From Thermodesulfovibrionia bacterium (GTDB taxonomy: Bacteria > Nitrospirota > Thermodesulfovibrionia > JACRGW01): 64,000 bases of DNA. Position 1 is the first letter of the stretch, and each line of letters opens with the position of its first letter. The notes below the pieces were generated by a model. That model made no database searches. It had not been told where the DNA came from and worked only from the letters and a program-made list of their open reading frames with translations. The translations under genes and the position numbers were made by a program. Below are positions 5,705 through 62,296 of the stretch, in pieces. The stretch spans positions 251-64,250 of the forward strand of contig CAKKRL010000162.1 in the NCBI GenBank assembly GCA_919902655.1. The letters run 5' to 3'.

Positions 5705-6390
5705 GAAGAAATCCTCCCTTTTCTTATCATCTCCATACCATTTTCTCCGCAGTTAAAAAGGATATCTATGCAGGATAGGTTTGGTTCAAACCCTTCATAG
5801 AGCTGTTGATATACAGGGTGTTTAAAATCCTGGATAACCACCTCTATCCCTGCCCTCTCGAAGGCATCCATGCCCATATATTTCGGTCCGTCCTTGCCGG
5901 AAAGATAGGTATCAGCCCCTACCGACCCGCAGAGGTCTATCAGCCGGCCATCAGGTTCATCCCTCGTTTCAAATTCTGATGCGATAAAAATCTTTTTCTT
6001 TATTCCAAAGAGGTCTGTAAGCATCTTTATCAGAGTGATATTAATATCTACAAGTCTCTCCCAGTTCTTTCTGTATATATCTTCGAAATAAGGAAAATAT
6101 TTTATGAAATATGGCGTCCTTCTGTAATTTGTCTCTATCGCAGTTAAATGTTTCCTCCTCCAGTCTACTCCGTTATTTATCCTCACCTCATTAATCTTCT
6201 CAGGAAATCTGTAAAGAACAGGGACTGTTAACCACTGCCATCCCTGGGATGTTTTTATCCTGTTACGGTTCTGCCATTCATTCTTTTTATACTGGACATT
6301 GTCAAGAAGTATAAATACATCAGACCTGTCTATCTTATCTATATATCCGATCCATGGCATATACTGGGGCTGATGTATAGAGGCCATCAT
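5701..6390 (-). CDS. WbqC-family protein of unknown function, as found in O-antigen clusters
   Basis: The N-terminus MMASIHQPQYMPWIGY is the hallmark of WbqC-like proteins. Confidence 0.65.
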   Translation of the reverse strand: MMASIHQPQYMPWIGYIDKIDRSDVFILLDNVQYKKNEWQNRNRIKTSQGWQWLTVPVLYRFPEKINEVRINNGVDWRRKHLTAIETNYRRTPYFIKYFPYFEDIYRKNWERLVDINITLIKMLTDLFGIKKKIFIASEFETRDEPDGRLIDLCGSVGADTYLSGKDGPKYMGMDAFERAGIEVVIQDFKHPVYQQLYEGFEPNLSCIDILFNCGENGMEMIRKGRISS

Positions 6391-7955
6391 CCATCGAACC
6401 TCACAAAAATCGGATTGGTAATAAGTTGTTCACCAACAGCCAGTCGATAATATATCTTCTTTCCGGGTAGAAAATAATCGTCTTTGTATTTTATCATAAA
6501 ATCTTTCCTGGCAGAAAACGTTTCTTTGACCTCTCCATTCCGTATCAGGAAAATCTTTATTTCTTCTTTGGGCGGCTTTGGAAATTTTATATTTATCGTA
6601 ACCTCTATTCCTTCTCTGCTCTGCAACTCCTCTCCCATTGTCGCCTCTCCATCAGAGCTTCTTAGAGTAAAATCCTCAAGAATCGGTTTATCTATACCCC
6701 TTACCGCATAGGCCCTCCCCTTCTTTAATGCATCTAAAACCTCTTCTTCTTTAAAAACCTTAAGAAAAAATACGGTCTGCGTCATACCCATCCAGTCACC
6801 TTCTTTGTAATCAAGCTCCCCTATAGCCCATACAGGGCTATCCCTCTTACCTTCACAGTAATCCTTCAGAATCTGATCCCACAGTCCACCGGGTTTTCCC
6901 ATGATCTTGTATCCCTCCTCAAAGACAGCAAAGCCAGTGTATCCTTTTGTCTCCATGAGATCGTTGTAATATGGCGACGTACTTACTTTTACCTTCCCGC
7001 CTTCAAAGGCACCACCGGCTTCGTATTTTCCCTCTGCCTCAGGATGTGCCCAGTAGGTCAGGGCATTCTTCTTATTTGCATAATCTATCAGAAACTGGTA
7101 CGGCCCTGTACCCTTATCCCCGTGGTACTGGTTATAGATAGGCTCGCAGAATGGGAAATTATTAATGAGGAAGATGATACCCGATGTCAGGATAATTATA
7201 CCTGTTACAGAATATATCCTCCTTTTCTTTTTAATCGTAAATCCTCTGAGACGATAGACCCTTTCTCCTTTTTTCCTTAAGAGGATAACACCGGGGATAA
7301 AGACTGCTATGGGCCAGAGATTTATTATACAGAAAGGGCCTAATCTTAAAGGAAATCCATATCCCACAGAAGGGATACCATTATAATCCTCAGGACTCTT
7401 CAGGCCCAGGATAAGTATATGCTTATGCCAGTTATTAAGGGTCAGTTCTCTTTTTATAGGATTTCCCTCCCAGTAGTAAAAAGGCACAGCCTCTGCGCCA
7501 TGGAGTATGAGCATATCCGTATATCTCTTCCTTAATTCTTCGATGGTGTCTATATATCTCCCTGAACCGTATTCTCTTATCCCTCCCTTATCAACCCTCT
7601 TTTTTATTATCTTCCTCAGAAGTGGTAGGCCGTATTCAACCCTCATATTGTCATGATCAGTAATAATTGCGATTTTGAGACCTTGATCCCTTACCTTTCT
7701 CACCATCTCCTCTGGAGAAAGCGTGCCGCCTCCTATATTGGTATCGAGATGAATTACCCCCTCAACCCTCAGATATTCCGCAGCAGAGGATTCTGAAATC
7801 GTAAAGAAAAATATGAGAAAAAGAATCCCGAACCAGCCGAATCGATTTTTCCGTTTAAATCCCCCCCTGTCCCTCTTTAACCCCTCTATCTCCCCCCTTA
7901 GTAAGGGGGGAATAAAAGGGGGGTGAGGGGGGATTTTACATCTTTTTAAGGACAT
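6387..7955 (-). CDS. PHP-like metal-dependent phosphoesterase domain protein with internal TM segments. The annotated N-terminus is encoded by a palindromic repeat, so the true start is probably downstream.
   Basis: IHLDTNIGGGTLSPEEMV…KIAIITDHDNM resembles a PHP-domain N-terminus. Hydrophobic stretches sit mid-protein. The first ~35 codons overlap repeat family B and the small ORF at 7936-8115. Confidence 0.4.
   Translation of the reverse strand: MSLKRCKIPPHPPFIPPLLRGEIEGLKRDRGGFKRKNRFGWFGILFLIFFFTISESSAAEYLRVEGVIHLDTNIGGGTLSPEEMVRKVRDQGLKIAIITDHDNMRVEYGLPLLRKIIKKRVDKGGIREYGSGRYIDTIEELRKRYTDMLILHGAEAVPFYYWEGNPIKRELTLNNWHKHILILGLKSPEDYNGIPSVGYGFPLRLGPFCIINLWPIAVFIPGVILLRKKGERVYRLRGFTIKKKRRIYSVTGIIILTSGIIFLINNFPFCEPIYNQYHGDKGTGPYQFLIDYANKKNALTYWAHPEAEGKYEAGGAFEGGKVKVSTSPYYNDLMETKGYTGFAVFEEGYKIMGKPGGLWDQILKDYCEGKRDSPVWAIGELDYKEGDWMGMTQTVFFLKVFKEEEVLDALKKGRAYAVRGIDKPILEDFTLRSSDGEATMGEELQSREGIEVTINIKFPKPPKEEIKIFLIRNGEVKETFSARKDFMIKYKDDYFLPGKKIYYRLAVGEQLITNPIFVRFDG
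7861..7935. repeat. GC-rich palindromic repeat family B, copy 1 (ccccccctgtccc…cccccctta g taagggggg aataaaagggggg tgagggggg atttt)
   Basis: Contains the perfect hairpin CCCCCCTTA/TAAGGGGGG. A related copy sits at 35726-35808. Lies within the annotated N-terminus of the PHP protein. Confidence 0.6.
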
Positions 7956-8115
7956 AAATCGTTATCGCAAAAAGGAGCAGTGTATTCGAGATCCTCATGT
8001 ATCCTCCAGGTGTAAGATGAGCAATCGAAAATGGTAGCAGAATAAATGCATCAAGAACCCCTATTCCCAGACTCACTACTGCTAAACCAAAAAATATCCA
8101 GCCCACGATTTTCAT
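7936..8115 (-). CDS. Small (59 aa) two-helix membrane protein, not in the ORF track
   Basis: Reverse complement reads ggaggtgaataagtATG then MKIVGWIFFGLAVVSLGIGVLDAFILLPFSIAHLTPGGYMRISNTLLLFAITIYVLKKM. Good SD. Confidence 0.45.
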   Translation of the reverse strand: MKIVGWIFFGLAVVSLGIGVLDAFILLPFSIAHLTPGGYMRISNTLLLFAITIYVLKKM

Positions 8116-33326: not shown

Positions 33327-34412
33327 ATGGAATGTCAGAGAATCCATGAGATAAACTACAATGACTGGAGTAACGTCTTCCACAACAGGAATCTCGACAA
33401 AAGGGTGCCTATCTCAGGAAGCCTTGAACTCACCTTCAGATGCAACAATAACTGCATACACTGCTACTGTAACATACCTGCAAATGACAGAAATGAAATG
33501 TCTAAAGAGATGTCTACCTCTATGGCCACCAGAATCCTTAGTGAGATTGCAGATGAAGGGTGTCTCTGGCTCCTGCTTACAGGAGGCGAACCTCTTCTAA
33601 GGCCTGACTTTAAGGAGATATATCTCTATGCAAAGAAAAAAGGTATGCTCATAATATTATTTACAAACGGTACGCTTATTAATGAAGAAATAGCAGATCT
33701 CCTTTCAGAATGGATGCCCTACTCTGTAGAGATAACCCTTTATGGTGCCACAGAGAATACCTATGAGGATGTTACAAGGGTTCACGGCTCATACAGACAG
33801 TGTATGAAGGGTATTGAACTGCTTCTTGAGAGAAAAATCCCCCTCGAATTAAAGACGATGGCAATAAGGCAGAATGTCCATGAACTCCCTGTCATGAAGA
33901 AATATGCAGAAGACCTTGGCCTTAAATTCAGGTTCGACCCTATAATAAATGCCCGTTTAGATATGTGCAAGAACCCTCAATCAACAAGAATTGATATAGA
34001 GGATGTGATAAGGCTTGATCTCGAGGATGAAAAGAGATTAAAAGAATGGAAGGAATTCTGTGAAAAGTATATAGGTTCTCCTGATTCAGACAGGCTCTAT
34101 ACCTGCGGGGCTGGAATAAATACATTTCATATAGACCCATACGGTAACCTCAATATATGTATCATGGCAAGGAAGGATAGATATGATCTTAAGACAGGAA
34201 ACTTCAGAGATGGTTGGAATGATTTTTTAATTAAGCTAAGGGAAATGTCTATGAGCCCTTATAATAGATGTATGGGATGCGATCTCATGTCTCTCTGCGG
34301 TCAGTGCCCTGGATGGGCGCAAATGGAGCACGGGGATGATGAGACCCCTGTTGACTATTTATGTGATATTGCACACAAGAGGGCAGAGGCATTCGGGGTG
34401 AAAGGGCATTAG
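33327..34412 (+). CDS. Radical SAM/SPASM-domain peptide-modifying enzyme
   Basis: CNNNCIHC (CxxxCxxC). C-terminal SPASM cysteines (CGAGINTFHIDPYGNLNIC…CMGCDLMSLCGQCPG). Confidence 0.85.
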   Translation: MECQRIHEINYNDWSNVFHNRNLDKRVPISGSLELTFRCNNNCIHCYCNIPANDRNEMSKEMSTSMATRILSEIADEGCLWLLLTGGEPLLRPDFKEIYLYAKKKGMLIILFTNGTLINEEIADLLSEWMPYSVEITLYGATENTYEDVTRVHGSYRQCMKGIELLLERKIPLELKTMAIRQNVHELPVMKKYAEDLGLKFRFDPIINARLDMCKNPQSTRIDIEDVIRLDLEDEKRLKEWKEFCEKYIGSPDSDRLYTCGAGINTFHIDPYGNLNICIMARKDRYDLKTGNFRDGWNDFLIKLREMSMSPYNRCMGCDLMSLCGQCPGWAQMEHGDDETPVDYLCDIAHKRAEAFGVKGH

Positions 34413-34493
34413 GGGGATAAAAGCGATTGAGAATATAAAGGGGAAAGGGAGAAAGAGCAACTATAGACTACGGACTTAAAAACAGGAGGACAA

Positions 34494-34748
34494 ATGGATA
34501 AACTTTTAAAGTTAGATAAAACAGGCGATTCAATACTTCTTAAAGAGATAAAAAAATCATTAGGCTTGAAACTTGATGATGAACTTTTCTTGTTCAGCGG
34601 AAAGGATTATCTGGTAATTAAAAAGGTTCAGAGACCTTCCCTTTCTGAGCGTTTTAAGAGCCTTTCTGAGAAGACAGAGAAACGATTTAAAAAAGAGGGG
34701 TTAAAAGAGGATGTGGTAGTTGAGGCTATTAAATGGGCACGAAGATAG
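34494..34748 (+). CDS. AbrB/MazE/SpoVT-type swapped-hairpin antitoxin-like protein
   Basis: LKLDKTGDSILLKEIKKSLGLKLDDELFLF…YLVIKK resembles an AbrB-type DNA-binding fold. Overlaps the truncated PIN ORF by 16 nt. Confidence 0.5.
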   Translation: MDKLLKLDKTGDSILLKEIKKSLGLKLDDELFLFSGKDYLVIKKVQRPSLSERFKSLSEKTEKRFKKEGLKEDVVVEAIKWARR

Positions 34749-34807
34749 TGCTCGATACCAATGTATTTGTTTCAGCAATCGGTTTGAGGCAAGGCCTCAA
34801 AGAGTAG
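34733..34807 (+). pseudogene. Truncated PIN-domain (VapC) toxin remnant, 24 codons then a stop
   Basis: MGTKIVLDTNVFVSAIGLRQGLKE* is a typical VapC N-terminus (…VLDTNV…) ended prematurely by TAG. Confidence 0.55.
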
Positions 34808-34810
34808 CGA

Positions 34811-34845
34811 GCCTGTTTCCAGAAGCTGTTCGGGAAACAGCCTTA
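34811..34845 (+). terminator. Stem-loop (cctgtttcc…ggaaacagc) just upstream of the peptide promoter; possible terminator or insulator
   Basis: 8-9 bp stem with a 12-nt loop, read directly. No U-tract. Confidence 0.3.
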
Positions 34846-34851
34846 CGATTC

Positions 34852-34880
34852 TTGACAGGAATGAAGATGGATAGTAAAAT
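34852..34880 (+). promoter_or_regulatory. Near-consensus sigma70 promoter TTGACA-N17-TAAAAT dedicated to the small peptide gene
   Basis: TTGACA at 34852-34857, a 17-nt spacer, TAAAAT at 34875-34880, then AAGGAGG and an ATG 9 nt later. Confidence 0.6.
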
Positions 34881-34903
34881 CAAAACAAAGGAGGATTAGC
34901 ACT

Positions 34904-35071
34904 ATGACAAAAAAGGCATATGAAAAACCCAAGGTAAGTAAGGTACCTTTAAAGACATCAGAGGCAGTTCTGACTGCATGTAAAGGTCCAGGTTCAAGGG
35001 GCCCCGGTTCTCTCGTAGGAAATTGTAGAGGCACCGCAGGCCGTGACTGTTCCTCTTGGAGTAGGACATAA
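34904..35071 (+). CDS. 55-aa Cys/Gly/Ser-rich small peptide, a candidate RiPP precursor; not in the ORF track
   Basis: MTKKAYEKPKVSKVPLKTSEAVLTACKGPGSRGPGSLVGNCRGTAGRDCSSWSRT. SD AGGAGG 9 nt upstream and its own promoter. The listed antisense ORF 34843..35034 is probably spurious. Confidence 0.6.
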   Translation: MTKKAYEKPKVSKVPLKTSEAVLTACKGPGSRGPGSLVGNCRGTAGRDCSSWSRT

Positions 35072-35089
35072 ACCTATATCACCGTATCC

Positions 35090-36166
35090 TTGTTACTACT
35101 CAGAATCGCAGATATAAACCTTCTCTTTAAGTCTGATCTCAAAGGGCTAAAGATCGGCTATCCTCAAAAGAATTTTATTCATTCCACATTCCCTCAATCC
35201 TCTCCCCAAAAGGGAGTGGAGGCAAAAAAGAAAGTCCCCTCTCCCCAACGGGGAGAGGGTCAGGGTGAGGGGGAAATTATTGACTGCACCATATCTATAG
35301 AACACCACCCTCTACCCTTTAATATTAAAGATAAAGAGATCTTCAGCCATGCAGGACCCTGGAAACTTTTCAGGAACAGAAAAGGTTATAAGATTGCCTT
35401 CTTTTTCCCCGCTTTAAAGCCTGATTATTACATGCTTGCAGAATTTAAAAGGGATTTCTCAAGGGTAAGACTATATATAAAAGACGCGGATCTTCGCTAC
35501 GCTCAGAATGACAAGCGAAGGGCTCAGAATGACAACAAGAAGACCTTTATTATTTCCCATCCCCTTGACCAGCTTTTAGTCATCAACCTCCTCTCCCGTG
35601 GCAGAGGAGTAATGATACACTCCTGTTGTGTCAATGATAACGGAAGGGGTTTCCTTTATGCCGGGACATCTCGCTCTGGCAAGAGTACGACTGCGAAACT
35701 CTGGTTAAAGCAGACAAAACCCTCCGAATCCCCCCACACCCCACTTTGGAAAAGGGATAATCCCCCTTCCTCCCCCTTTATTAAAGGGGGAATAGAGGGG
35801 GATTTTAAAGATATGACAGGAGTGAAGGTTTTAAGCGATGACAGGATTATAATCAGAGAGTTTGATGATAAGATCTATGCCTATGGCACACCCTGGCATG
35901 GGGAGGTAAATGTCTGTGATCCTGGAAGGGTGGAGATAGAAAGGATATTCTTCCTTCAACACTCGACGAAAAACTATGTGAAGTCACTTCCTCCTGTGGA
36001 TGCAGCAACGAGGATGTTTGTCAGATGCTTCCCCACCTTCTGGGATAAGGAAGGTATGGCATTTACACTGAAATTCATAGATGAGGTGGTCAGGAAAGTC
36101 CCCTGCTATGAATTCGGATTCGTGCCGGATAAAAGTGCGGTCAATTTCGTTAGAGGGCTTCGCTGA
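35090..36166 (+). CDS. HPr kinase/phosphorylase-like P-loop kinase (HprK-related). Its N-terminal region carries three in-frame repeat-element insertions. The start is uncertain: the track lists TTG at 35090, and the first ATG is at about 35432.
   Basis: P-loop LYAGTSRSGKST (HprK Walker A pattern G-x-S-G-x-GKS) plus downstream DDRII…GTPWHGE. Repeat families A, C and B lie in frame. Confidence 0.5.
   Translation: MLLLRIADINLLFKSDLKGLKIGYPQKNFIHSTFPQSSPQKGVEAKKKVPSPQRGEGQGEGEIIDCTISIEHHPLPFNIKDKEIFSHAGPWKLFRNRKGYKIAFFFPALKPDYYMLAEFKRDFSRVRLYIKDADLRYAQNDKRRAQNDNKKTFIISHPLDQLLVINLLSRGRGVMIHSCCVNDNGRGFLYAGTSRSGKSTTAKLWLKQTKPSESPHTPLWKRDNPPSSPFIKGGIEGDFKDMTGVKVLSDDRIIIREFDDKIYAYGTPWHGEVNVCDPGRVEIERIFFLQHSTKNYVKSLPPVDAATRMFVRCFPTFWDKEGMAFTLKFIDEVVRKVPCYEFGFVPDKSAVNFVRGLR
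35190..35281. repeat. Palindromic repeat family A, copy 1 (tccctcaatcctctcccc … cccctctcccc aac ggggagaggg … gggtgaggggg), in frame in the HprK-like ORF
   Basis: Shares the core CCTCAATCCTCTCCCC…GGGGAGAGG with copies at 36449-36500 and 50519-50562. Confidence 0.6.
35501..35540. repeat. Repeat family C, copy 1: tandem gctcagaatgacaa(gcgaag)ggctcagaatgacaa, in frame in the HprK-like ORF (encoding AQNDKRRAQNDNK)
   Basis: A near-identical arrangement at 52165-52205 (ggactcggaatgacaagcaaaggactcagaatgacaa) is intergenic. Confidence 0.55.
35726..35808. repeat. Repeat family B, copy 2, in frame in the HprK-like ORF (encoding …SPHTPLWKRDNPPSSPFIKGGIEGDFK)
   Basis: aatccccccacacccc…atcccccttcctccccctttattaaagggggaatagagggggatttt aligns with the reverse complement of 7861-7935. 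Confidence 0.55.
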
Positions 36167-36188
36167 ATAAGTGAGGACAGGCGAGACG

Positions 36189-36261
36189 CCTGTCCTACCA
36201 ATACGGATGACGAAACAAGGAAAAAGTAGGTCAGGCGTCTCGCCTGACAAAGTGGAATCGC
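36189..36261 (+). terminator. Pair of near-identical inverted hairpins (ggacaggcgagacgcctgtcc … gtcaggcgtctcgcctgac); terminator/attenuator-like
   Basis: Stems of 9 bp and 8 bp with 3-nt loops, about 40 nt apart. They are reverse complements of one another. Confidence 0.4.
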
Positions 36262-36276
36262 TCAATTTAGGTTAAT

Positions 36277-36831
36277 ATGAAACCCGACCTCCAGACTATA
36301 ACATCCATAATCCTTGATGAAGGATACTATGCTGCTTTACCCACAATAGGCCCATCTATGTACCCTGTTATTAGAGCAGGCGACAAAATCTATGTTGAAT
36401 CCCTTATGGGAAGGACGCCTGAAACTGGAGATATTGTACTCTTTAAATCCCCCTCACCTCAATCCTCTCCTCTACGAGCCATGGCCCCAAGGGGAGAGGA
36501 AGTAAGTGTAGAGTCCTCTCTCTCTAATAGAGAAGAAGTAATTATGGTATGCCACAGGCTTCTGAAGATATTCAAGAAGGATGGTACTACTTATTATCAA
36601 ACAAGAGGAGATGCCTATTTCTATAAAGACATACCTATAACATATGACCAGATTATCGGAAGGGTTGTAAAGGTTGAACGGTCTGTAGTATCTTTGCCAA
36701 GGAAGATCCTTTTGACTTTAAACCCCTTCTTAGGAAAATTTACCATACTGAATGCAGCTATAATTACTGTATTGGTATGGATTAAAAAGGCTTTAGTAAA
36801 AAATAACCATTTGTTTATCGGTTATTTTTAG
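36277..36831 (+). CDS. S24/S26 (signal peptidase I / LexA-like) serine peptidase-fold protein with a C-terminal TM helix and a repeat-encoded insertion
   Basis: PTIGPSMYPVIRAGDKIYVE (the GxSMxP nucleophile region of S26/S24). Insertion …SPSPQSSPLRAMAPRGEEVSVESS… is encoded by repeat family A. Confidence 0.45.
   Translation: MKPDLQTITSIILDEGYYAALPTIGPSMYPVIRAGDKIYVESLMGRTPETGDIVLFKSPSPQSSPLRAMAPRGEEVSVESSLSNREEVIMVCHRLLKIFKKDGTTYYQTRGDAYFYKDIPITYDQIIGRVVKVERSVVSLPRKILLTLNPFLGKFTILNAAIITVLVWIKKALVKNNHLFIGYF
36449..36500. repeat. Repeat family A, copy 2, in frame in the S26-like ORF (encoding SPSPQSSPLRAMAPRGEE)
   Basis: ccctcacctcaatcctctcc…ggggagagga. Same reading frame (PQSSP) as copy 1. 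Confidence 0.55.
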
Positions 36832-40091: not shown

Positions 40092-40948
40092 AGTGAAACC
40101 CTTTCTCCATAATCCCTCAGCGTCTCTTCCCATTTCCTCATCCTGTATCCAGTCAGCTTAAAATATCTGTCATTGCTCAATACAGAATATGAAGGCCTCT
40201 TCGCAGGTCTTTTCAGCTCACCGGATTTTATCGGTATAACATTCACGCCCTTTATCCCCTTTATTCTTATTATCTCTTTCGCAAAATCATACCAGGAACA
40301 TTCCCCTGAATTACTGCAATGGACAATACCCGCTGCATCTGAATCAATCAACCTCTCTATTGATTCTGAGAGGTCTACAGTATAAGTGGGTGAGCCTGTC
40401 TGGTCATCCACAACCCTTATTTCATCTTTTTCATTCGATAACCTCAGGATCGTATCAACAAAATTCCTTCCGTTTTTACCGAAGAGCCATGAGGTCCGTA
40501 TAATAAGAGTCTGGAGTCTGGAGTCTGGAGTCTGAAGTCTGGAGATTTCCTGCTCTCCTTCAAGTTTGGACTGTCCGTATATATTTATTGGCCTTGGCTC
40601 ATCATCCTCTTTATATGGTTCCTTCTTCTCTCCGTTAAAGACATAATCTGTACTGATGTGTATGAACCTTGCATTCACTTCATAACATCCTGTTGCCACA
40701 TTTCTCGCCCCACCCCTGTTCACTTTAAATGCCACTTCCCTCTCTGTCTCGCAGGCATCAACATCTGTGAATGCAGCAGTATTTATAACAAGTTCGGGAA
40801 TTATTTTTTTTATTCCCCTTATAGTCTCTGCCTCGTCCGTAATATCGAAATCTTCAACATCAACACCTTTTACATCATTCTTTATAGAAAGCCTTTTTAC
40901 AAGATCAGTTCCAAGCATCCCCTTTGCACCTGTCACAAGAATCCTCAT
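40088..40948 (-). CDS. rfbD: dTDP-4-dehydrorhamnose reductase
   Basis: MRILVTGAKGMLG…, …RTSWLFG…, and a C-terminal pattern typical of RfbD. Contains an in-frame heptamer-repeat insertion (EISRLQTPDSRLQT). Confidence 0.8.
   Translation of the reverse strand: MRILVTGAKGMLGTDLVKRLSIKNDVKGVDVEDFDITDEAETIRGIKKIIPELVINTAAFTDVDACETEREVAFKVNRGGARNVATGCYEVNARFIHISTDYVFNGEKKEPYKEDDEPRPINIYGQSKLEGEQEISRLQTPDSRLQTLIIRTSWLFGKNGRNFVDTILRLSNEKDEIRVVDDQTGSPTYTVDLSESIERLIDSDAAGIVHCSNSGECSWYDFAKEIIRIKGIKGVNVIPIKSGELKRPAKRPSYSVLSNDRYFKLTGYRMRKWEETLRDYGERVSL
40508..40550. repeat. Tandem heptamer (GAGTCTG)x5 within rfbD, in frame
   Basis: gagtctggagtctggagtctggagtctgaagtctggag read directly. Translates on the minus strand to EISRLQTPDSRLQT. 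Confidence 0.7.
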
Positions 40949-45777: not shown

Positions 45778-47148
45778 TCACACCCTCAGCCTCTCCACAT
45801 CCATACCGAATCCTTTAACCTCTCCCACAGTATATAGGGAGCCTGTAATACATATAAGATCCCGACTGCCTGCTTTACCCATTGCATACTCAATGGCCTC
45901 GTTTACTCCCTTTATAGCCATTACATTCGGATTAAACGCCTCTGCCTCAACCGCAAGAGATTCAGGTGAAGCAGCCCTCTCATAGTCCACTGTTGTCACT
46001 ATCACCTCAGATGCAATGGGTGCAAGGACCCTGAGGAATCCCCTTACATCCTTATCCTTCATCATACCTACTATCAAAAATAACCTACCGTGCCCGGGGA
46101 GAAATATCTCTTCAAGTGATTTCTTAAGAGAACGTGCGGCTCCTTCATTATGTGCACCATCGAGGATAACTGTTGGGTTTCTGGATATTATTTCGAGCCT
46201 CCCGTCCCACCTGGCCTCTTTAAGTCCCTTCCTTACCATCTTCTCTTCTATTTTAATTTCATTACCGATTACCTCTGTAGTAGCAACTGCCAGTGAGGCA
46301 TTCGTTATCTGATGTGCACCTAACAGAGGAATTTCAAGACCTTGGTATATCTTTTTTATTCCATAATAATCAAAGACTTGAGTCTGGAGTCTGGAGTCTG
46401 GCCCGCCTTGCTTCTCCGTAGGATCCTGTGGAGCGGAGCGAGGCCGGGGAGCCTGGAGTCTTGAACCCTCTGTCCTAAAATCCCTTCCTGATATATATAG
46501 TTTAGACCCCATATCTTTACATTTATCTTCTATCAACTGCCTGACCTCAGGCAGATTATCTGCCATAACAACAGGGATTCCCTCCTTTATGGTTCCTGCT
46601 TTCTCTATCGCTATCTCGGGAAGGGTTACACCGAGGAATTCCTGATGGTCATAACCGATATTTGTTATAACAGAAACCAAAGGGGTTATCACATTCGTAG
46701 CATCGAGCCTTCCACCCATACCTACCTCTATTACTGCTATGTCAACATCTTCTTCTGCAAAGTATTTAAAGGCAATTGCTGTGGTAAATTCGAAAAAAGT
46801 GGGTGTAATACATTTGATATTTGAGATTTGAGATTCGAGATTCAAAGTCATCTCTGACACCCTTTCTTCCTCAATCGGCATACCGTTTACCCTTATCCTT
46901 TCTGTAAAGCTTACAAGGTGTGGTGAGGTATAAAGGCCAACCTTCATTCCTGAACCCTTAAGTATAGATGCAATCATTACTGCGGTTGATCCTTTACCAT
47001 TTGTCCCGGCAATATGGATTGATTTAAATCGCCTATGGGGATTCCAGAGGATACCCATCAAAGAGAGTGTATTATCCAGTCCTAACTTTATCCCGTATTT
47101 CTGCAGACTGTAAAGGTAATCAACCGCCTCTTTATAACCCATACACAC
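45778..47148 (-). CDS. folC: Bifunctional folylpolyglutamate synthase / dihydrofolate synthase
   Basis: HIAGTNGKGSTAVMIASILKGSG P-loop and Mur-ligase-like layout. Carries two in-frame tandem-repeat insertions. Confidence 0.8.
   Translation of the reverse strand: MCMGYKEAVDYLYSLQKYGIKLGLDNTLSLMGILWNPHRRFKSIHIAGTNGKGSTAVMIASILKGSGMKVGLYTSPHLVSFTERIRVNGMPIEEERVSEMTLNLESQISNIKCITPTFFEFTTAIAFKYFAEEDVDIAVIEVGMGGRLDATNVITPLVSVITNIGYDHQEFLGVTLPEIAIEKAGTIKEGIPVVMADNLPEVRQLIEDKCKDMGSKLYISGRDFRTEGSRLQAPRPRSAPQDPTEKQGGPDSRLQTQVFDYYGIKKIYQGLEIPLLGAHQITNASLAVATTEVIGNEIKIEEKMVRKGLKEARWDGRLEIISRNPTVILDGAHNEGAARSLKKSLEEIFLPGHGRLFLIVGMMKDKDVRGFLRVLAPIASEVIVTTVDYERAASPESLAVEAEAFNPNVMAIKGVNEAIEYAMGKAGSRDLICITGSLYTVGEVKGFGMDVERLRV
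46374..46475. repeat. Composite element in folC: (GAGTCTG)x3, then a GC-rich palindromic core, then ctggagtct; in frame (encodes SRLQAPRPRSAPQDPTEKQGGPDSRLQT)
   Basis: Read directly. Same heptamer and the same reading frame as the rfbD copy. Confidence 0.6.
46806..46850. repeat. Tandem heptamers (atttgag/attcgag) in frame in folC (encodes LNLESQISNIK)
   Basis: tttgatatttgagatttgagattcgagattcaaagtc read directly. Confidence 0.5.
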
Positions 47149-50373: not shown

Positions 50374-50568
50374 CTACTCACGGCATGGCAGTTCGCCGCG
50401 AGGCCTTCCTTGTTTTATCAGACGACACAAGCACCTTAAATTACTTCCCCTCCGATTTCGAATCAATCAACCTGTTGAAATAGTCCTCTTTTGTCACCCA
50501 AATTCATTTCATGGTCTTATCCCCTCACCTTCATCCTCTCCCCTTAGGGGAGAGGGGTGGGTATGAGC

Positions 50569-51072: not shown

Positions 51073-52179
51073 TTACACCTTCTTTCCGACAATAACAGCC
51101 TCGTTTCCATTTGCAAAAAGATAAACCTCTGTCTTCATCCCTACACGATGAAACTCGGCCTCTATCTCTTCAGGCATGAGGAAATGATTTCCCTGAATAT
51201 GTTCTGCAAGGTTCTGGAATACCATCCCTTTCTTCATCGGGTCACGCAGTTCAGAACGGTCCTTTGGCCAGTTAGGTTCCCATATTACTGCTGAACCGCC
51301 AGCCTTGAGGTGTTCCTTTAAAATACGAAACACATCCTCTTTCTTATCCCATACATGGTGCAAGGCACGGTTCATAGCGATTAAATTAGCAGGTTCGCTA
51401 GCAGAAAAATGGTAGATATCACCATTCATAAATTTCAATCTATCACTCAGGCCATTGTCCTGTGCAATCTTTGTGGCCTGATTAATATTCTCTTCAAAAC
51501 CATCAAGCCCTATCCCCCTGAGATGAGGAAATCGTGTTACAATCCTTCTCAGATACCACCCGTTTCCACAACCAAGATCGATAATTAGACCTCCTTTCTC
51601 ATCTGTCTCTCTGTACACCGGCACATTCGGAAGTATCTGTTGTTCAAATACTCCACTGAACATGGCTTCAAGCATCGGTCCGAACAGGGGCAGGATACTC
51701 GTTCTCTCTGCCAGTACCATTTCACCCGGACGTTCACCGCTTCTCATTAAAGATGCCGCCCTTTCACACATATGTGCAGAAAGCACAGACTGAACTGAAA
51801 AAGGCATCGCAGTTCCGGGTGTCTCAGCAATGAAGGAACTTCCAATATCTGTAAGACTGAATTTCCCATCACTCTCGTCCAGAAGACCGAACGCATAAGC
51901 AGCATCACACCAGCGATTCAGATAATCTCTATCCAGTCCTGTTTTCCCTGCCAGTTCGTCAGGTGTAGCCTTTCTATCCCTATTTAATACAGAAAAAAGA
52001 TTATTCGATATTCCGATAAATGCTATATTAAGCATCATCGCCCCCTGCATTTGTGAAATTATCTGTTTACGCAATTCCTCTGAAACACTCATAGATTTTT
52101 CCTCCTGTTGAGATTTTTCATGCCGAGCAAAAAAAATGAGATTCCTCCTCCCCATTCCTATCTGGACTCGGAATGACAA
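51073..52179 (-). CDS. Class I SAM-dependent methyltransferase with an N-terminal winged-helix/dimerisation domain (O-methyltransferase-like). The likely true start is MSVSEEL at about 52092.
   Basis: LIIDLGCGNGWYL motif I. The N-terminal ~90 aa look like the dimerisation domain of plant/bacterial O-MTases. Confidence 0.65.
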   Translation of the reverse strand: MSFRVQIGMGRRNLIFFARHEKSQQEEKSMSVSEELRKQIISQMQGAMMLNIAFIGISNNLFSVLNRDRKATPDELAGKTGLDRDYLNRWCDAAYAFGLLDESDGKFSLTDIGSSFIAETPGTAMPFSVQSVLSAHMCERAASLMRSGERPGEMVLAERTSILPLFGPMLEAMFSGVFEQQILPNVPVYRETDEKGGLIIDLGCGNGWYLRRIVTRFPHLRGIGLDGFEENINQATKIAQDNGLSDRLKFMNGDIYHFSASEPANLIAMNRALHHVWDKKEDVFRILKEHLKAGGSAVIWEPNWPKDRSELRDPMKKGMVFQNLAEHIQGNHFLMPEEIEAEFHRVGMKTEVYLFANGNEAVIVGKKV

Positions 52180-52205
52180 GCAAAGGACTCAGAATGACAA
52201 TCAAG
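52165..52205. repeat. Repeat family C, copy 2 (intergenic)
   Basis: ggactcggaatgacaagcaaaggactcagaatgacaatcaagg. Confidence 0.5.
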
Positions 52206-55751: not shown

Positions 55752-56909
55752 ATGGATTATTTTTTAACAGATGCACAGAAGACAATTCGCGACATTGCAA
55801 GAAAGATAGCAATTGAGAAGGTAGTTCCTTCAAGGGCTGAACTTGATGAGAAAGAGGAATTCCCCCATGAAATAATGAAGGCCCTTGCCCAGGCAGATCT
55901 GTTCGGACTTTATATACCCGAGAAGTATGGTGGTTTCGGCGGAGGAAGCATCGATCTTGCCCTTGCTGTGGAAGAATTGAGCTCTGCCTGTCTCGGCGTT
56001 TCAACCACTTTTGCTGCAAATGCACTTGCTGCATATCCCGTCCTCCTCTTTGGCAGCGAAGAACAGAAAAAGAGCTTTCTTCCGGATATAGCATCAGGAA
56101 AGAAACTTGCTGCATTCGGTCTTACAGAGGCTGGTGCAGGCAGCGACGCAGCGGCCATCCAGACTACAGCAAAAAAAGAAGGCGATGAATATATCCTTAA
56201 TGGCACTAAACAATGGATTACAAATGGTGGAGAGGCAGAAATCTATACCATAATAGCAATGACAGATAAATCCAAAGGGACTCGCGGTGCCTCAGCATTT
56301 ATCGTGGAAAAAGGGACTCCAGGATTTAGTTTCGGTAAGAAGGAGAAGAAGATGGGAATAAGGGCCTCAGCAACAAGGGAATTGGTCTTTGAAAACTGCC
56401 CTGTTCCGAAGGAGAACCTCCTCTCCAAAGAGGGGATGGGTTTTATCGTAGCAATGAGAACACTCGATATCTCAAGAGTAGGTATAGGCGCACAGGGGGT
56501 TGGCCTTGCACATGGGGCCCTCGATGAAGCAGTAAAATATGCAAGAGAAAGACATCAGTTCGGCAAGCCCATTATATCTTTCCAGGCCATACAGCACATG
56601 CTTGCAGATATGGCCATATTGACAGAATCAGCAAGGGCGCTAGTCTATTCTACTGCACGTGTCATTGACAGCGGTTCTAAGGAGTATTCTAAGGAGTCCG
56701 CTATGGTTAAAGTATTTGCTTCGGATGTAGCGATGAAGGTAGCAACAGACGCAGTCCAGATCTTCGGGGGTTATGGCTATATGAGGGAATACCCTGTTGA
56801 GAAGATGATGAGAGACGCAAAGATCCTTCAGATATATGAGGGAACAAACCAAATACAGAGAAATATTATCGGTCAGGCACTGATAAAGGAAGCAGCGAGC
56901 AAAAAATAG
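55752..56909 (+). CDS. Acyl-CoA dehydrogenase family protein (FAD-dependent), inserted between fabH and fabD
   Basis: 385 aa. Typical ACAD layout: …GLTEAGAGSDAAA…, …YEGTNQIQR… C-terminus. Confidence 0.85.
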   Translation: MDYFLTDAQKTIRDIARKIAIEKVVPSRAELDEKEEFPHEIMKALAQADLFGLYIPEKYGGFGGGSIDLALAVEELSSACLGVSTTFAANALAAYPVLLFGSEEQKKSFLPDIASGKKLAAFGLTEAGAGSDAAAIQTTAKKEGDEYILNGTKQWITNGGEAEIYTIIAMTDKSKGTRGASAFIVEKGTPGFSFGKKEKKMGIRASATRELVFENCPVPKENLLSKEGMGFIVAMRTLDISRVGIGAQGVGLAHGALDEAVKYARERHQFGKPIISFQAIQHMLADMAILTESARALVYSTARVIDSGSKEYSKESAMVKVFASDVAMKVATDAVQIFGGYGYMREYPVEKMMRDAKILQIYEGTNQIQRNIIGQALIKEAASKK

Positions 56910-56960
56910 TCTTTAGTCAGCAGTCGGCAGTCAGTAGCAAAGAAAAATAAAAAATAAAAA
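56909..56960. repeat. Tandem heptamers (agtcttt agtcagc agtcggc agtcagt), then (aaaaat/aaaaaat)x3 between the ACAD and etfB genes
   Basis: Read directly. Confidence 0.45.
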
Positions 56961-60954: not shown

Positions 60955-61040
60955 CGAACAACTAATAAAATCCCCCTCAATTCCCCTTCCTGCCTGTCGG
61001 CAGACAGGTTTCAAAGGGGGGTGGAGGGGTTTTTTTAAAA
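60955..61040 (+). terminator. Nested GC-rich palindrome after acpP (cccctcaattcccc…cctgcctgtcggcagacagg…aaggggggtggagggg TTTTTTT), intrinsic-terminator-like
   Basis: Inner 8-bp stem cctgcctg/cagacagg, outer C-rich/G-rich arms, then a T7 tract. Read directly. Confidence 0.55.
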
Positions 61041-61042
61041 GA

Positions 61043-62296
61043 ATGGAGAGAGGTATTCTAAAAAAAAGGGTGGTCGTTACAGGCATCGGCCTTATTACAC
61101 CTCTTGGTTTAGACTTTGAAAAAAGCTGGCAGGCCCTGTGTAAAGGTTACTCCGGCGTTGATAAAATAACCCTTTTCGACCCTAAAGACCTGACAACACA
61201 GATAGCGGCTGAGGTAAAGGATTTTAATCCCTCAGACTGGATCGAGCAGAAAGAGATAAAAAAAATGGACCGTTTCATCCATTTTGCCGTCTCCGCGAGT
61301 CAGATGGCAATGGATGATTCAGGGTTAAAGATCAACGGCGGAAATGCAGACAGCACTGGAGTAATTGTCGGCTCAGGTATGGGGGGAATGGCTGCCGTGG
61401 AGCATTACCATTCCGTTCTCATGGAAAAAGGTCCAAAAAGGATCTCTCCATTTTTCATTCCGATGACCATTATAAACCTTGCCTCTGGTCAGATATCCAT
61501 AAGATTTGGTGCAAAGGGGCCAAACTCTGCGCCTGTTACTGCCTGCGCAGCAGGAACCCACGCAATAGGTGAGGCCTTCAGGTTAATACAGAGAGGCGAT
61601 GCCGATGCCATGATAACAGGAGGGACAGAAGCTGTTATTACACCACTCGCTATCGGAGGTTTCTGTTCGATGAAGGCACTTTCAACTCGAAATCATGAAC
61701 CACATAAAGCAAGCCGTCCATTTGAGAGGGACAGGGACGGATTTGTGATGGGAGAAGGTGCAGGGATCCTTATCCTCGAATCCCTCGAATCCGCACTCAT
61801 CAGAGATGCAAGGATATACGCAGAGATTATCGGATTCGGCATGAGCGGAGATGCTTACCATATATCATCCCCTTCCCCTGATGGTGAAGGTGCTGCAAGG
61901 TGTATGGCCATGGCATTGAGGGACAGCGGCATAGGCCCTTCAGATGTTGATTATATAAATGCCCACGGCACATCAACTAAATACGGAGATGAACTTGAGA
62001 CAAAGGCGATAAAGACCGTCTTCGGAGGTCATGCCTATAGATTGAAGGTCAGTTCTACCAAATCAATGACAGGTCATCTCCTTGGTGCTGCTGGCGGTGT
62101 TGAGGCAGTTATTTCCATACTTGCAATCCATAGGGGTATCATCCCTCCAACAATCAATCTTGAGAACCCTGACCCCGAATGTGATCTCGATTATGTACCG
62201 AATAAGGCTATTGAGGCCAGGATAGATACCGCTATGTCCAATTCCTTCGGCTTCGGCGGAACAAATGCCTGTGTTATCTTCAAACGTTATGAATAA
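61043..62296 (+). CDS. fabF: 3-oxoacyl-ACP synthase II
   Basis: Active-site …ACAAGTHAIG…, HGTST and GHLLGAAG motifs. Confidence 0.9.
   Translation: MERGILKKRVVVTGIGLITPLGLDFEKSWQALCKGYSGVDKITLFDPKDLTTQIAAEVKDFNPSDWIEQKEIKKMDRFIHFAVSASQMAMDDSGLKINGGNADSTGVIVGSGMGGMAAVEHYHSVLMEKGPKRISPFFIPMTIINLASGQISIRFGAKGPNSAPVTACAAGTHAIGEAFRLIQRGDADAMITGGTEAVITPLAIGGFCSMKALSTRNHEPHKASRPFERDRDGFVMGEGAGILILESLESALIRDARIYAEIIGFGMSGDAYHISSPSPDGEGAARCMAMALRDSGIGPSDVDYINAHGTSTKYGDELETKAIKTVFGGHAYRLKVSSTKSMTGHLLGAAGGVEAVISILAIHRGIIPPTINLENPDPECDLDYVPNKAIEARIDTAMSNSFGFGGTNACVIFKRYE

Follow-up and report, generated by a model that had tools for sequence, protein, structure and literature searches.

We analyzed a stretch of 64,000 nucleotides (the window hereafter) of contig CAKKRL010000162.1, from the assembly GCA_919902655.1 of a Thermodesulfovibrionia bacterium (Nitrospirota). 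It was obtained from the Hainich H51 groundwater metagenome, its relatives are Nitrospirota metagenome-assembled genomes (MAGs) and its GC content is 43%. Two GC-rich palindromic sequences, which we refer to as copies A and B of repeat family B, are found inside open reading frames (ORFs) of this window. Copy A (7857-7935, minus strand, AAAATCCCCCCTCACCCCCCTTTTATTCCCCCCTTACTAAGGGGGGAGATAGAGGGGTTAAAGAGGGACAGGGGGGGATTT) is a full-length element: about 79 nt long, it has three nested C6/G6 stems and is located at the beginning of a 522-aa ORF coding for a PHP / CehA-McbA-like metallohydrolase (6387-7955, minus strand, ATG at 7955). Copy B, which a direct reading of the sequence reveals as a relative of copy A at about 35727-35808, is a degenerate element. 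As a feature it extends over 35714-35812 (no strand assigned) and makes up a 99-nt (33-codon) in-frame insert, TKPSESPHTPLWKRDNPPSSPFIKGGIEGDFKDM, within the 358-aa ORF of a ScmC-like or HprK-like P-loop protein (35090-36166, plus strand) that carries two other repeat inserts as well. Our analysis indicates that both copies very probably belong to a family of palindromic repeats, non-autonomous and dispersed in Nitrospirota, which would be translated where it occupies tolerant positions in genes.

The original prediction for this DNA had described both GC-rich sequences, and they are present as it described them. It had also presented them as reverse complements of each other. The relationship was borne out, but this orientation is only one of two valid descriptions: local alignments of A with B score 43 and 45 for the two relative orientations, about the same, because both copies are palindromes. 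Similarly, with the covariance model used below, copy B scores 37 bits when taken on the minus strand and 28 bits when taken on the plus strand. The proposed correspondence of frames was right, with copy A read on the minus strand and copy B on the plus strand in the same register and ..PFI..IEG.. in both. Structurally, the two consist of C-runs and G-runs that nest as palindromes, with A/T-rich spacers between them, and copy A has a predicted fold of -49.8 kcal/mol (z = -3.2).

Membership of a common family is supported by several searches. With up to 3 mismatches allowed, the core pattern ATTCCCCCCTTNNTAAGGGGG occurs four times in the window, where 0.05 matches would be expected, and this count is far above that in its shuffles. 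A covariance model (R1), built from 11 seed copies that included copy A and left out copy B, finds copy B with 37 bits (E = 6e-9); its score for copy A (101.9 bits) is not independent, A being one of the seeds. With nhmmer, copy A reached 85 bits and copy B was matched at 35727-35802. Eleven full-length copies taken from unrelated genes of different MAGs could be aligned without gaps, with 80% mean column identity over about 80 nt and 20 consensus base pairs in the family fold. The modules of the element are runs of six C and runs of six G, separated by A/T-rich spacers. Two nested stems make up a short form of about 45 nt (ACCCCCCTTTAATTCCCCCCTTnnTAAGGGGGGAnAnAGGGGGGT), and an extra outer stem extends it to the full form of about 80 nt, whose copies end in the terminal inverted repeats AATCCCCCC...GGGGGGATT.

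We scanned one genome per species, 185,579 species in total, for 19 specified bases of the core hairpin and found at least 120 stretches, when only about 4 would be expected by chance (4^19, uniform composition). The main phyla among the matches listed were Cyanobacteria (about 75 loci), Nitrospirota (28) and Poribacteria (9), each with phylum-specific flanks. Besides, an nhmmer search of 457 kb of Nitrospirota DNA, a sample enriched by the way in which it was collected, detected 53 distinct copies, and copies were seen in independent assemblies from NCBI, JGI, ENA and Logan. The repeat family that the original prediction had proposed is supported: copy B is recovered by R1 and further copies exist in large numbers in other Nitrospirota genomes. 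Viral contigs gave only three matches and no evidence for a phage vector. No Rfam family scored above threshold for the element (only generic microRNA-hairpin noise appeared), and our literature search for its peptide motifs, its DNA strings or Nitrospirota repeats found no description of the family. The Nitrospirota-type short form, with identical flanks, was also seen at three loci (L010, L054 and L060) in MAGs labelled Latescibacterota, Methanobacteriota and Nitrospinota, which points to horizontal transfer or to mis-binned contigs.

Copy B lies in frame inside its HprK-like gene, as had been predicted. The ORF matches PF27840 and, weakly, TIGR04249, and its homologues typically have 285-300 aa, against 358 here. 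Alignment with them places the insert directly after the Walker A helix, between GKSTTAKLWL and GVKVLSDDR, in a segment that is absent from most homologues. The syntenic orthologue at locus L003 reads LWLNEAGVKV at this point, and the window is longer by exactly 99 nt (33 codons). At the same site, three further lineages (L006/L007, L008 and L009) have Pro/Gly-rich inserts; the L006 insert is a full-length family B element close to the consensus, and its reading frame differs from that of copy A. In an AlphaFold model of the ScmC-like protein (pTM 0.75), coil with predicted local distance difference test (pLDDT) values below 50 is found at residues 35-60, 135-151 and 211-242. These three segments coincide with the three separate repeat inserts, and the remainder is confidently folded. 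Copy B would accordingly form, in the modelled protein, a disordered loop after the P-loop helix.

The other inserts of this gene belong to different repeats. One is a palindrome that we call family A (35236-35273, CCCCTCTCCCCAACGGGGAGAGGG..., peptide PSPQRGEGQGEGE), also in frame, whose partner copy at 50521-50557 is intergenic. We considered family A (PSPQRGEGQGEGE) for inclusion in family B and treated it as separate, its R1 scores being marginal (E = 0.03-0.05). The neighboring ORF for an S26-like peptidase has a related 12-aa insert at 36443-36500, and this one and the family A insert are both missing in L003. A third kind of repeat, CTCAGAATGACAAGCGAAGGGCTCAGAATGACAA (35502-35535, peptide AQNDKRRAQNDNKK), is an in-frame insert absent from L002 and L003, with a copy 91% identical at 52167-52200, apparently outside any long ORF. 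Locus L002 (165-1208), on a contig of the same Hainich well, matches 35090-36166 with 100% identity in its 3' half and about 75% in its 5' half, where it is without two of the three inserts; the switch point falls upstream of copy B. Either this locus represents a co-occurring strain that is recombinant, or its assembly is chimeric. Given the 100% identity of the 3' half with the window, we rejected it as independent support for copy B. The gene itself is part of a PqqD / radical-SAM-SPASM / S26-peptidase cassette. The region 33327-36831, together with upstream genes seen in L001, is a SynChlorMet-like peptide-maturation cassette that comprises an ABC transporter, PqqD, a radical SAM/SPASM protein (33327-34412), small ORFs (34494-34748, and 34904-35071, which might encode the precursor), the ScmC-like protein and an S26-type peptidase. 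Its synteny is kept in L003, L006 and L008.

To place the copies relative to genes we took 27 Nitrospirota copies picked by DNA pattern alone and required at least 50 codons of ORF on both sides. Sixteen of the 27 were inside ORFs by this test, and random positions drawn from these loci gave 62%. Among the copies of the wider nhmmer set, 30 of 51 were inside ORFs, and another three, at N-termini, fell short of the 50-codon requirement. The same test put 0 of 8 copies inside ORFs in Poribacteria and 12 of 66 in Cyanobacteria. The host ORFs are real genes, unrelated to each other: TopA (two genomes, at different sites), MutS, a PPDK-like enzyme (two copies), an NtrC-type regulator, a CofH/MqnC-like radical SAM enzyme, CobT, a FAD oxidoreductase (two copies), a GT9 heptosyltransferase and a periplasmic binding protein. 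Single Pfam domain matches span the insert in TopA, CobT, the FAD oxidoreductase and GT9, and in MutS and the PPDK-like, NtrC-like, radical SAM and periplasmic binding proteins there are Pfam matches on both sides of the insert or adjoining it. At the first TopA site, among 11 metagenome orthologues retaining that loop, only L125 is filled, and a second variable TopA loop has elements in different orientations across lineages.

These locations bear on a different explanation, that the repeats are host-functional DNA or RNA structures under selection, such as terminators or attenuators, hairpins like those of REP (repetitive extragenic palindromic) elements and BIMEs (bacterial interspersed mosaic elements), or G-quadruplexes and i-motifs, with translation being incidental. 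The hairpins are very stable, their stems are conserved across genomes and around 40% of the copies are intergenic. There is also a probable third, diverged relative in the window (copy C, 60959-61043, no strand assigned; R1 23.8 bits, E of about 1e-4), with arms AAAATCCCCCTCA...TGGAGGGG followed by T7 in the acpP-fabF spacer, a long hairpin (z = -5.1) that looks like an intrinsic terminator or attenuator. Of the three sequences in the window, however, only this weak relative combines a GC hairpin with a U-run at a gene end; A and B are inside ORFs, and no U-run follows them on the sense strand. The coding fraction equals that of random positions, which indicates no preference for gene ends, copies interrupt TopA, MutS and CobT midway, at points where termination of transcription would do damage, and no Rfam family matched. 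We regard selection for host structures as unlikely.

The ATG of the PHP ORF at 7955 falls inside the last 20 nt of an upstream ORF for a conserved 59-aa membrane protein (7936-8115, minus strand), which has a strong Shine-Dalgarno sequence and was called at the same place in L130-L134. Its TAA stop (7936-7938) adjoins the outer arm of copy A. The original prediction had the repeat overlapping this small ORF, but the element begins right at the stop codon and the coding part is not overlapped. Translated in frame, copy A gives residues 8-33 (IPPHPPFIPPLLRGEIEGLKRDRGGF) of the PHP ORF, between the n-region (MSLKRCK) and the h-region of its signal peptide. What follows has the order of a classical signal peptide, KRKNR, GWFGILFLIFFFTIS and SESSAAE, where GWFGILFLIFFFTIS is the hydrophobic core of the signal peptide or anchor (7794-7838, minus strand), directly downstream of the repeat.

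It had been proposed that the PHP protein starts downstream of the repeat, leaving copy A untranslated in an intergenic or 5' leader position. The contact with the upstream stop codon agrees with this, as does the lack of a Shine-Dalgarno sequence ahead of ATG 7955, and at locus L130, which is empty, the PHP gene has a 37-nt spacer with its own ribosome-binding site and ATG. Nevertheless, there is no in-frame ATG, GTG or TTG between copy A and the signal-peptide core (KRKNRFGWFGILFLIFFFTISESSAAE) in the window, and L133 and L134 likewise have no start codon downstream of the repeat. The next Met of the ORF lies beyond GVIHLDTNIGGG, the mature protein's first conserved block, which is kept in all orthologues. 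An open frame would by itself be weak evidence, two of the three frames on the copy A strand being open through the repeat. Yet in five orthologues, P0121 (94% identity), P0123, P0124, P0125 and P0126, the alignment shows the frame open through diverged repeat copies, in spite of length changes of around 19-20 codons (repeat lengths vary among them by up to about 20 codons). At the empty site of L132, the 59-aa ORF ends in ..LYVLKKM* and the PHP protein starts at the same overlapping ATG, MFSKRCSLIFFTLLF.., and passes from there straight into the signal peptide (MFSKRCSLIFFTLLFLF..) with no repeat. The site is filled in the window, L133 and L134 and empty in L132 and L130. A downstream start, and with it the intergenic or leader position, is very improbable on this evidence.

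Because there is no later start codon, the frame is kept in orthologues and L132 uses the same ATG, we conclude that copy A was inserted inside the PHP coding sequence, just past the upstream stop codon and within the n-region of the signal peptide, and that ATG 7955 is the ancestral start. The PHP orthologues typically have 487-495 aa, and the best match to the window ORF in the protein collection is the one at 94%, the identical protein being absent there. The segment encoded by copy A is net basic and thus fits a cytoplasmic n-region, which it would lengthen. Cleavage of the signal peptide, if it occurs, would strip the repeat-encoded peptide off the mature enzyme, and the repeat-bearing precursor would contain the junction peptide IPPHPPFIPPLLR.

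Why such a sequence can be read through is apparent from its composition. On whichever strand, the C-runs are read as Pro and the G-runs as Gly, and the sole fixed stop codon is the TAA of the loop, so four of the six frames are open. They yield Pro/Gly-rich peptides (NPPSPPFNSPLTKGGYRGVKGGQGG, IPPHPPLIPPLVRGDxEG, TPLxPPLxRGELKGG and SPLxKGGIKGG), and the frame and strand of reading differ from gene to gene. The inserted peptide itself could in principle be the selected unit, a Pro/Gly-rich linker or binding module spread by recombination, and the same peptide NPPSPPFNSPL(T/S)KGGYRGVKGGQGG is indeed found in 7 of the 11 top-scoring elements (8 of them full-length and 3 slightly truncated). But the same DNA is read in at least three to four frames or orientations to give unrelated peptides, many copies lie between genes, the structural model shows the inserts as disordered and conservation tracks the DNA palindrome, not any reading frame, which makes peptide selection very improbable. 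Finally, convergent low-complexity sequence or an assembly artefact, suggested by the homopolymer runs and by the same core hairpin with other flanks in Cyanobacteria and Poribacteria, is scarcely credible when about 80 nt including the non-homopolymer spacers are conserved within Nitrospirota, copies occur in independent assemblies, and the counts in the genome collection and in the window are far above the chance estimate and the shuffles.

A dispersed family of non-autonomous repeats translated at tolerant positions is thus the reading that we prefer. The data themselves show that the copies form a family, that they are kept in frame in real genes, that orthologous sites are filled or empty and that the inserts are loops in the model; we infer that the elements move by transposition, that in-frame copies are translated and that they are neutral to their hosts. 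Copies landing in frame, with a length divisible by three and in a tolerant spot, would survive and be translated; in the window such spots would be offered by a loop at the protein surface in one case and by a signal-peptide n-region, which is cytoplasmic, in the other. The composition of the element would make in-frame copies encode flexible Pro/Gly loops, so that copies in tolerant positions persist.

Several points weigh against this reading. The window holds only two or three copies, mutually diverged, which do not speak for recent activity in this genome, and the count of at least 120 stretches is a lower bound, not a full census. A single protein was modelled, and low pLDDT is also expected for segments without alignment depth. 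The ScmC-site inserts of four lineages share flanking residues, and this site could represent one old insertion with later precise loss instead of repeated gain. As for mobility, the longest direct repeats flanking 34 elements average 4.65 nt, compared with 4.55 nt in controls with shuffled flank pairings, so there is no excess, and no transposase partner was found, although none was looked for. The absence of a target-site duplication is compatible with single-strand transposition of the REP/RAYT (REP-associated tyrosine transposase) or IS200/IS605 type.

One filled and empty pair, that of TopA in L125, had the appearance of a 9-bp target-site duplication. We rejected it, given the null result for the 34 elements and the heptamer tandem repeats that flank other copies, and flanking heptamers are probably the cause of the resemblance. 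Heptamer arrays of this kind, (GGAGTCT)n and (AGTCRGC)n, are present in the window at 40500-40548, 46366-46470 and 56900-56934, and two of these arrays fall within long minus-strand ORFs of 287 aa and 463 aa. In L039, L066 and L125, comparable arrays border family B elements of the short form. The heptamers recall the STRR (short tandemly repeated repetitive) sequences of cyanobacteria. A perfect G15-AA-C15 hairpin at 295-326, in an apparently non-coding stretch, is either a real structure or a homopolymer assembly artefact.

The C6/G6 repeats of Cyanobacteria and Poribacteria have, by common descent or by convergence, the same inner hairpin as the Nitrospirota family, ATTCCCCCCTTnnTAAGGGGGG, followed by a second G-run. 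They differ in their flanks and architecture (GATCCCCC..GGGGGGATC, some within GGACTTACGCA...TGCGTAAGTCC inverted repeats) and are mostly intergenic, unlike those of Nitrospirota. In L015, L027, L080, L095, L108 and L120 (cyanobacteria) and in L034-L117 (Poribacteria) this terminal inverted repeat often bounds the hairpin, which suggests a classical MITE (miniature inverted-repeat transposable element) common to both phyla, with C6/G6 hairpins as internal cargo. More speculatively, there might be a C6/G6 hairpin superfamily common to the three phyla from which essential proteins of Nitrospirota would, generally and still today, acquire surface loops and extended signal peptides, through movement without target-site duplication, although we hold this view only tentatively and consider it rather doubtful. 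Pro/Gly-coding runs, together with one stop-containing frame per strand, would make the element protein-compatible, and the Nitrospirota copies would colonize coding as freely as non-coding sequence.

Rickettsia offers the best documented instance of palindromic selfish DNA that has colonized housekeeping genes in frame on a large scale. The Nitrospirota family would be a second, unrelated case, in an environmentally important free-living phylum; it would mean that reductive intracellular genomes are no precondition of the phenomenon, and would hint at a simple sequence rule for protein-compatible repeats. On the practical side, the elements inflate ORF lengths, their Pro/Gly-rich low-complexity inserts confuse domain and start-codon annotation in Nitrospirota MAGs, and they are likely break or chimera points in metagenome assembly.

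Among known systems, bacterial MITEs (Correia, ERIC, Nezha and others) are similar in being small and non-autonomous, with terminal inverted repeats, which the full form has too, and with occasional in-frame fusions. However, we detected no target-site duplication, of fixed length or otherwise, for the Nitrospirota element, it is far shorter than most MITEs and it is not known to have a parent insertion sequence. REP elements and REPINs, which are mobilized by RAYT transposases (Bertels and Rainey 2011, PMC3116915), share with it the short GC-rich imperfect palindromes in many copies, the nested or doublet hairpins and the lack of target-site duplication. REP elements are nevertheless extragenic by definition and have a conserved GTAG head, and the Nitrospirota element fits neither description, about 59-65% of its copies being inside ORFs.

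The closest parallel is provided by the Rickettsia palindromic elements (RPE), described by Ogata et al. in 2000 and summarized in a review of MITEs (PMC10969869). According to this review, RPE are inserted in frame in many metabolic genes with unusually high frequency. Both are dispersed hairpin repeats found in frame in unrelated housekeeping genes, with the ORF kept, and neither has a known mobilizing enzyme. The extra peptide, which in RPE is placed where the fold tolerates it, may be similarly placed here. The features of the RPE-like class, multiple dispersed copies, a stable hairpin and in-frame location in unrelated genes with the ORF preserved, are all found in the Nitrospirota family. 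On the other hand, its elements have about 45-80 nt, in short and full forms, against about 100-150 nt for RPE. They are GC-rich, with C6/G6 runs in a 43% GC genome of a free-living phylum, and give Pro/Gly loops in four of six frames. Their coding fraction is indistinguishable from random positions, with no depletion from coding sequence, and published descriptions of composition and length set the family apart from RPE-1 to RPE-10 of Rickettsiales, to which it is probably unrelated in sequence. We read the Nitrospirota elements as a new RPE-like family of in-frame palindromic repeats, functionally similar to RPE and not an RPE family proper.

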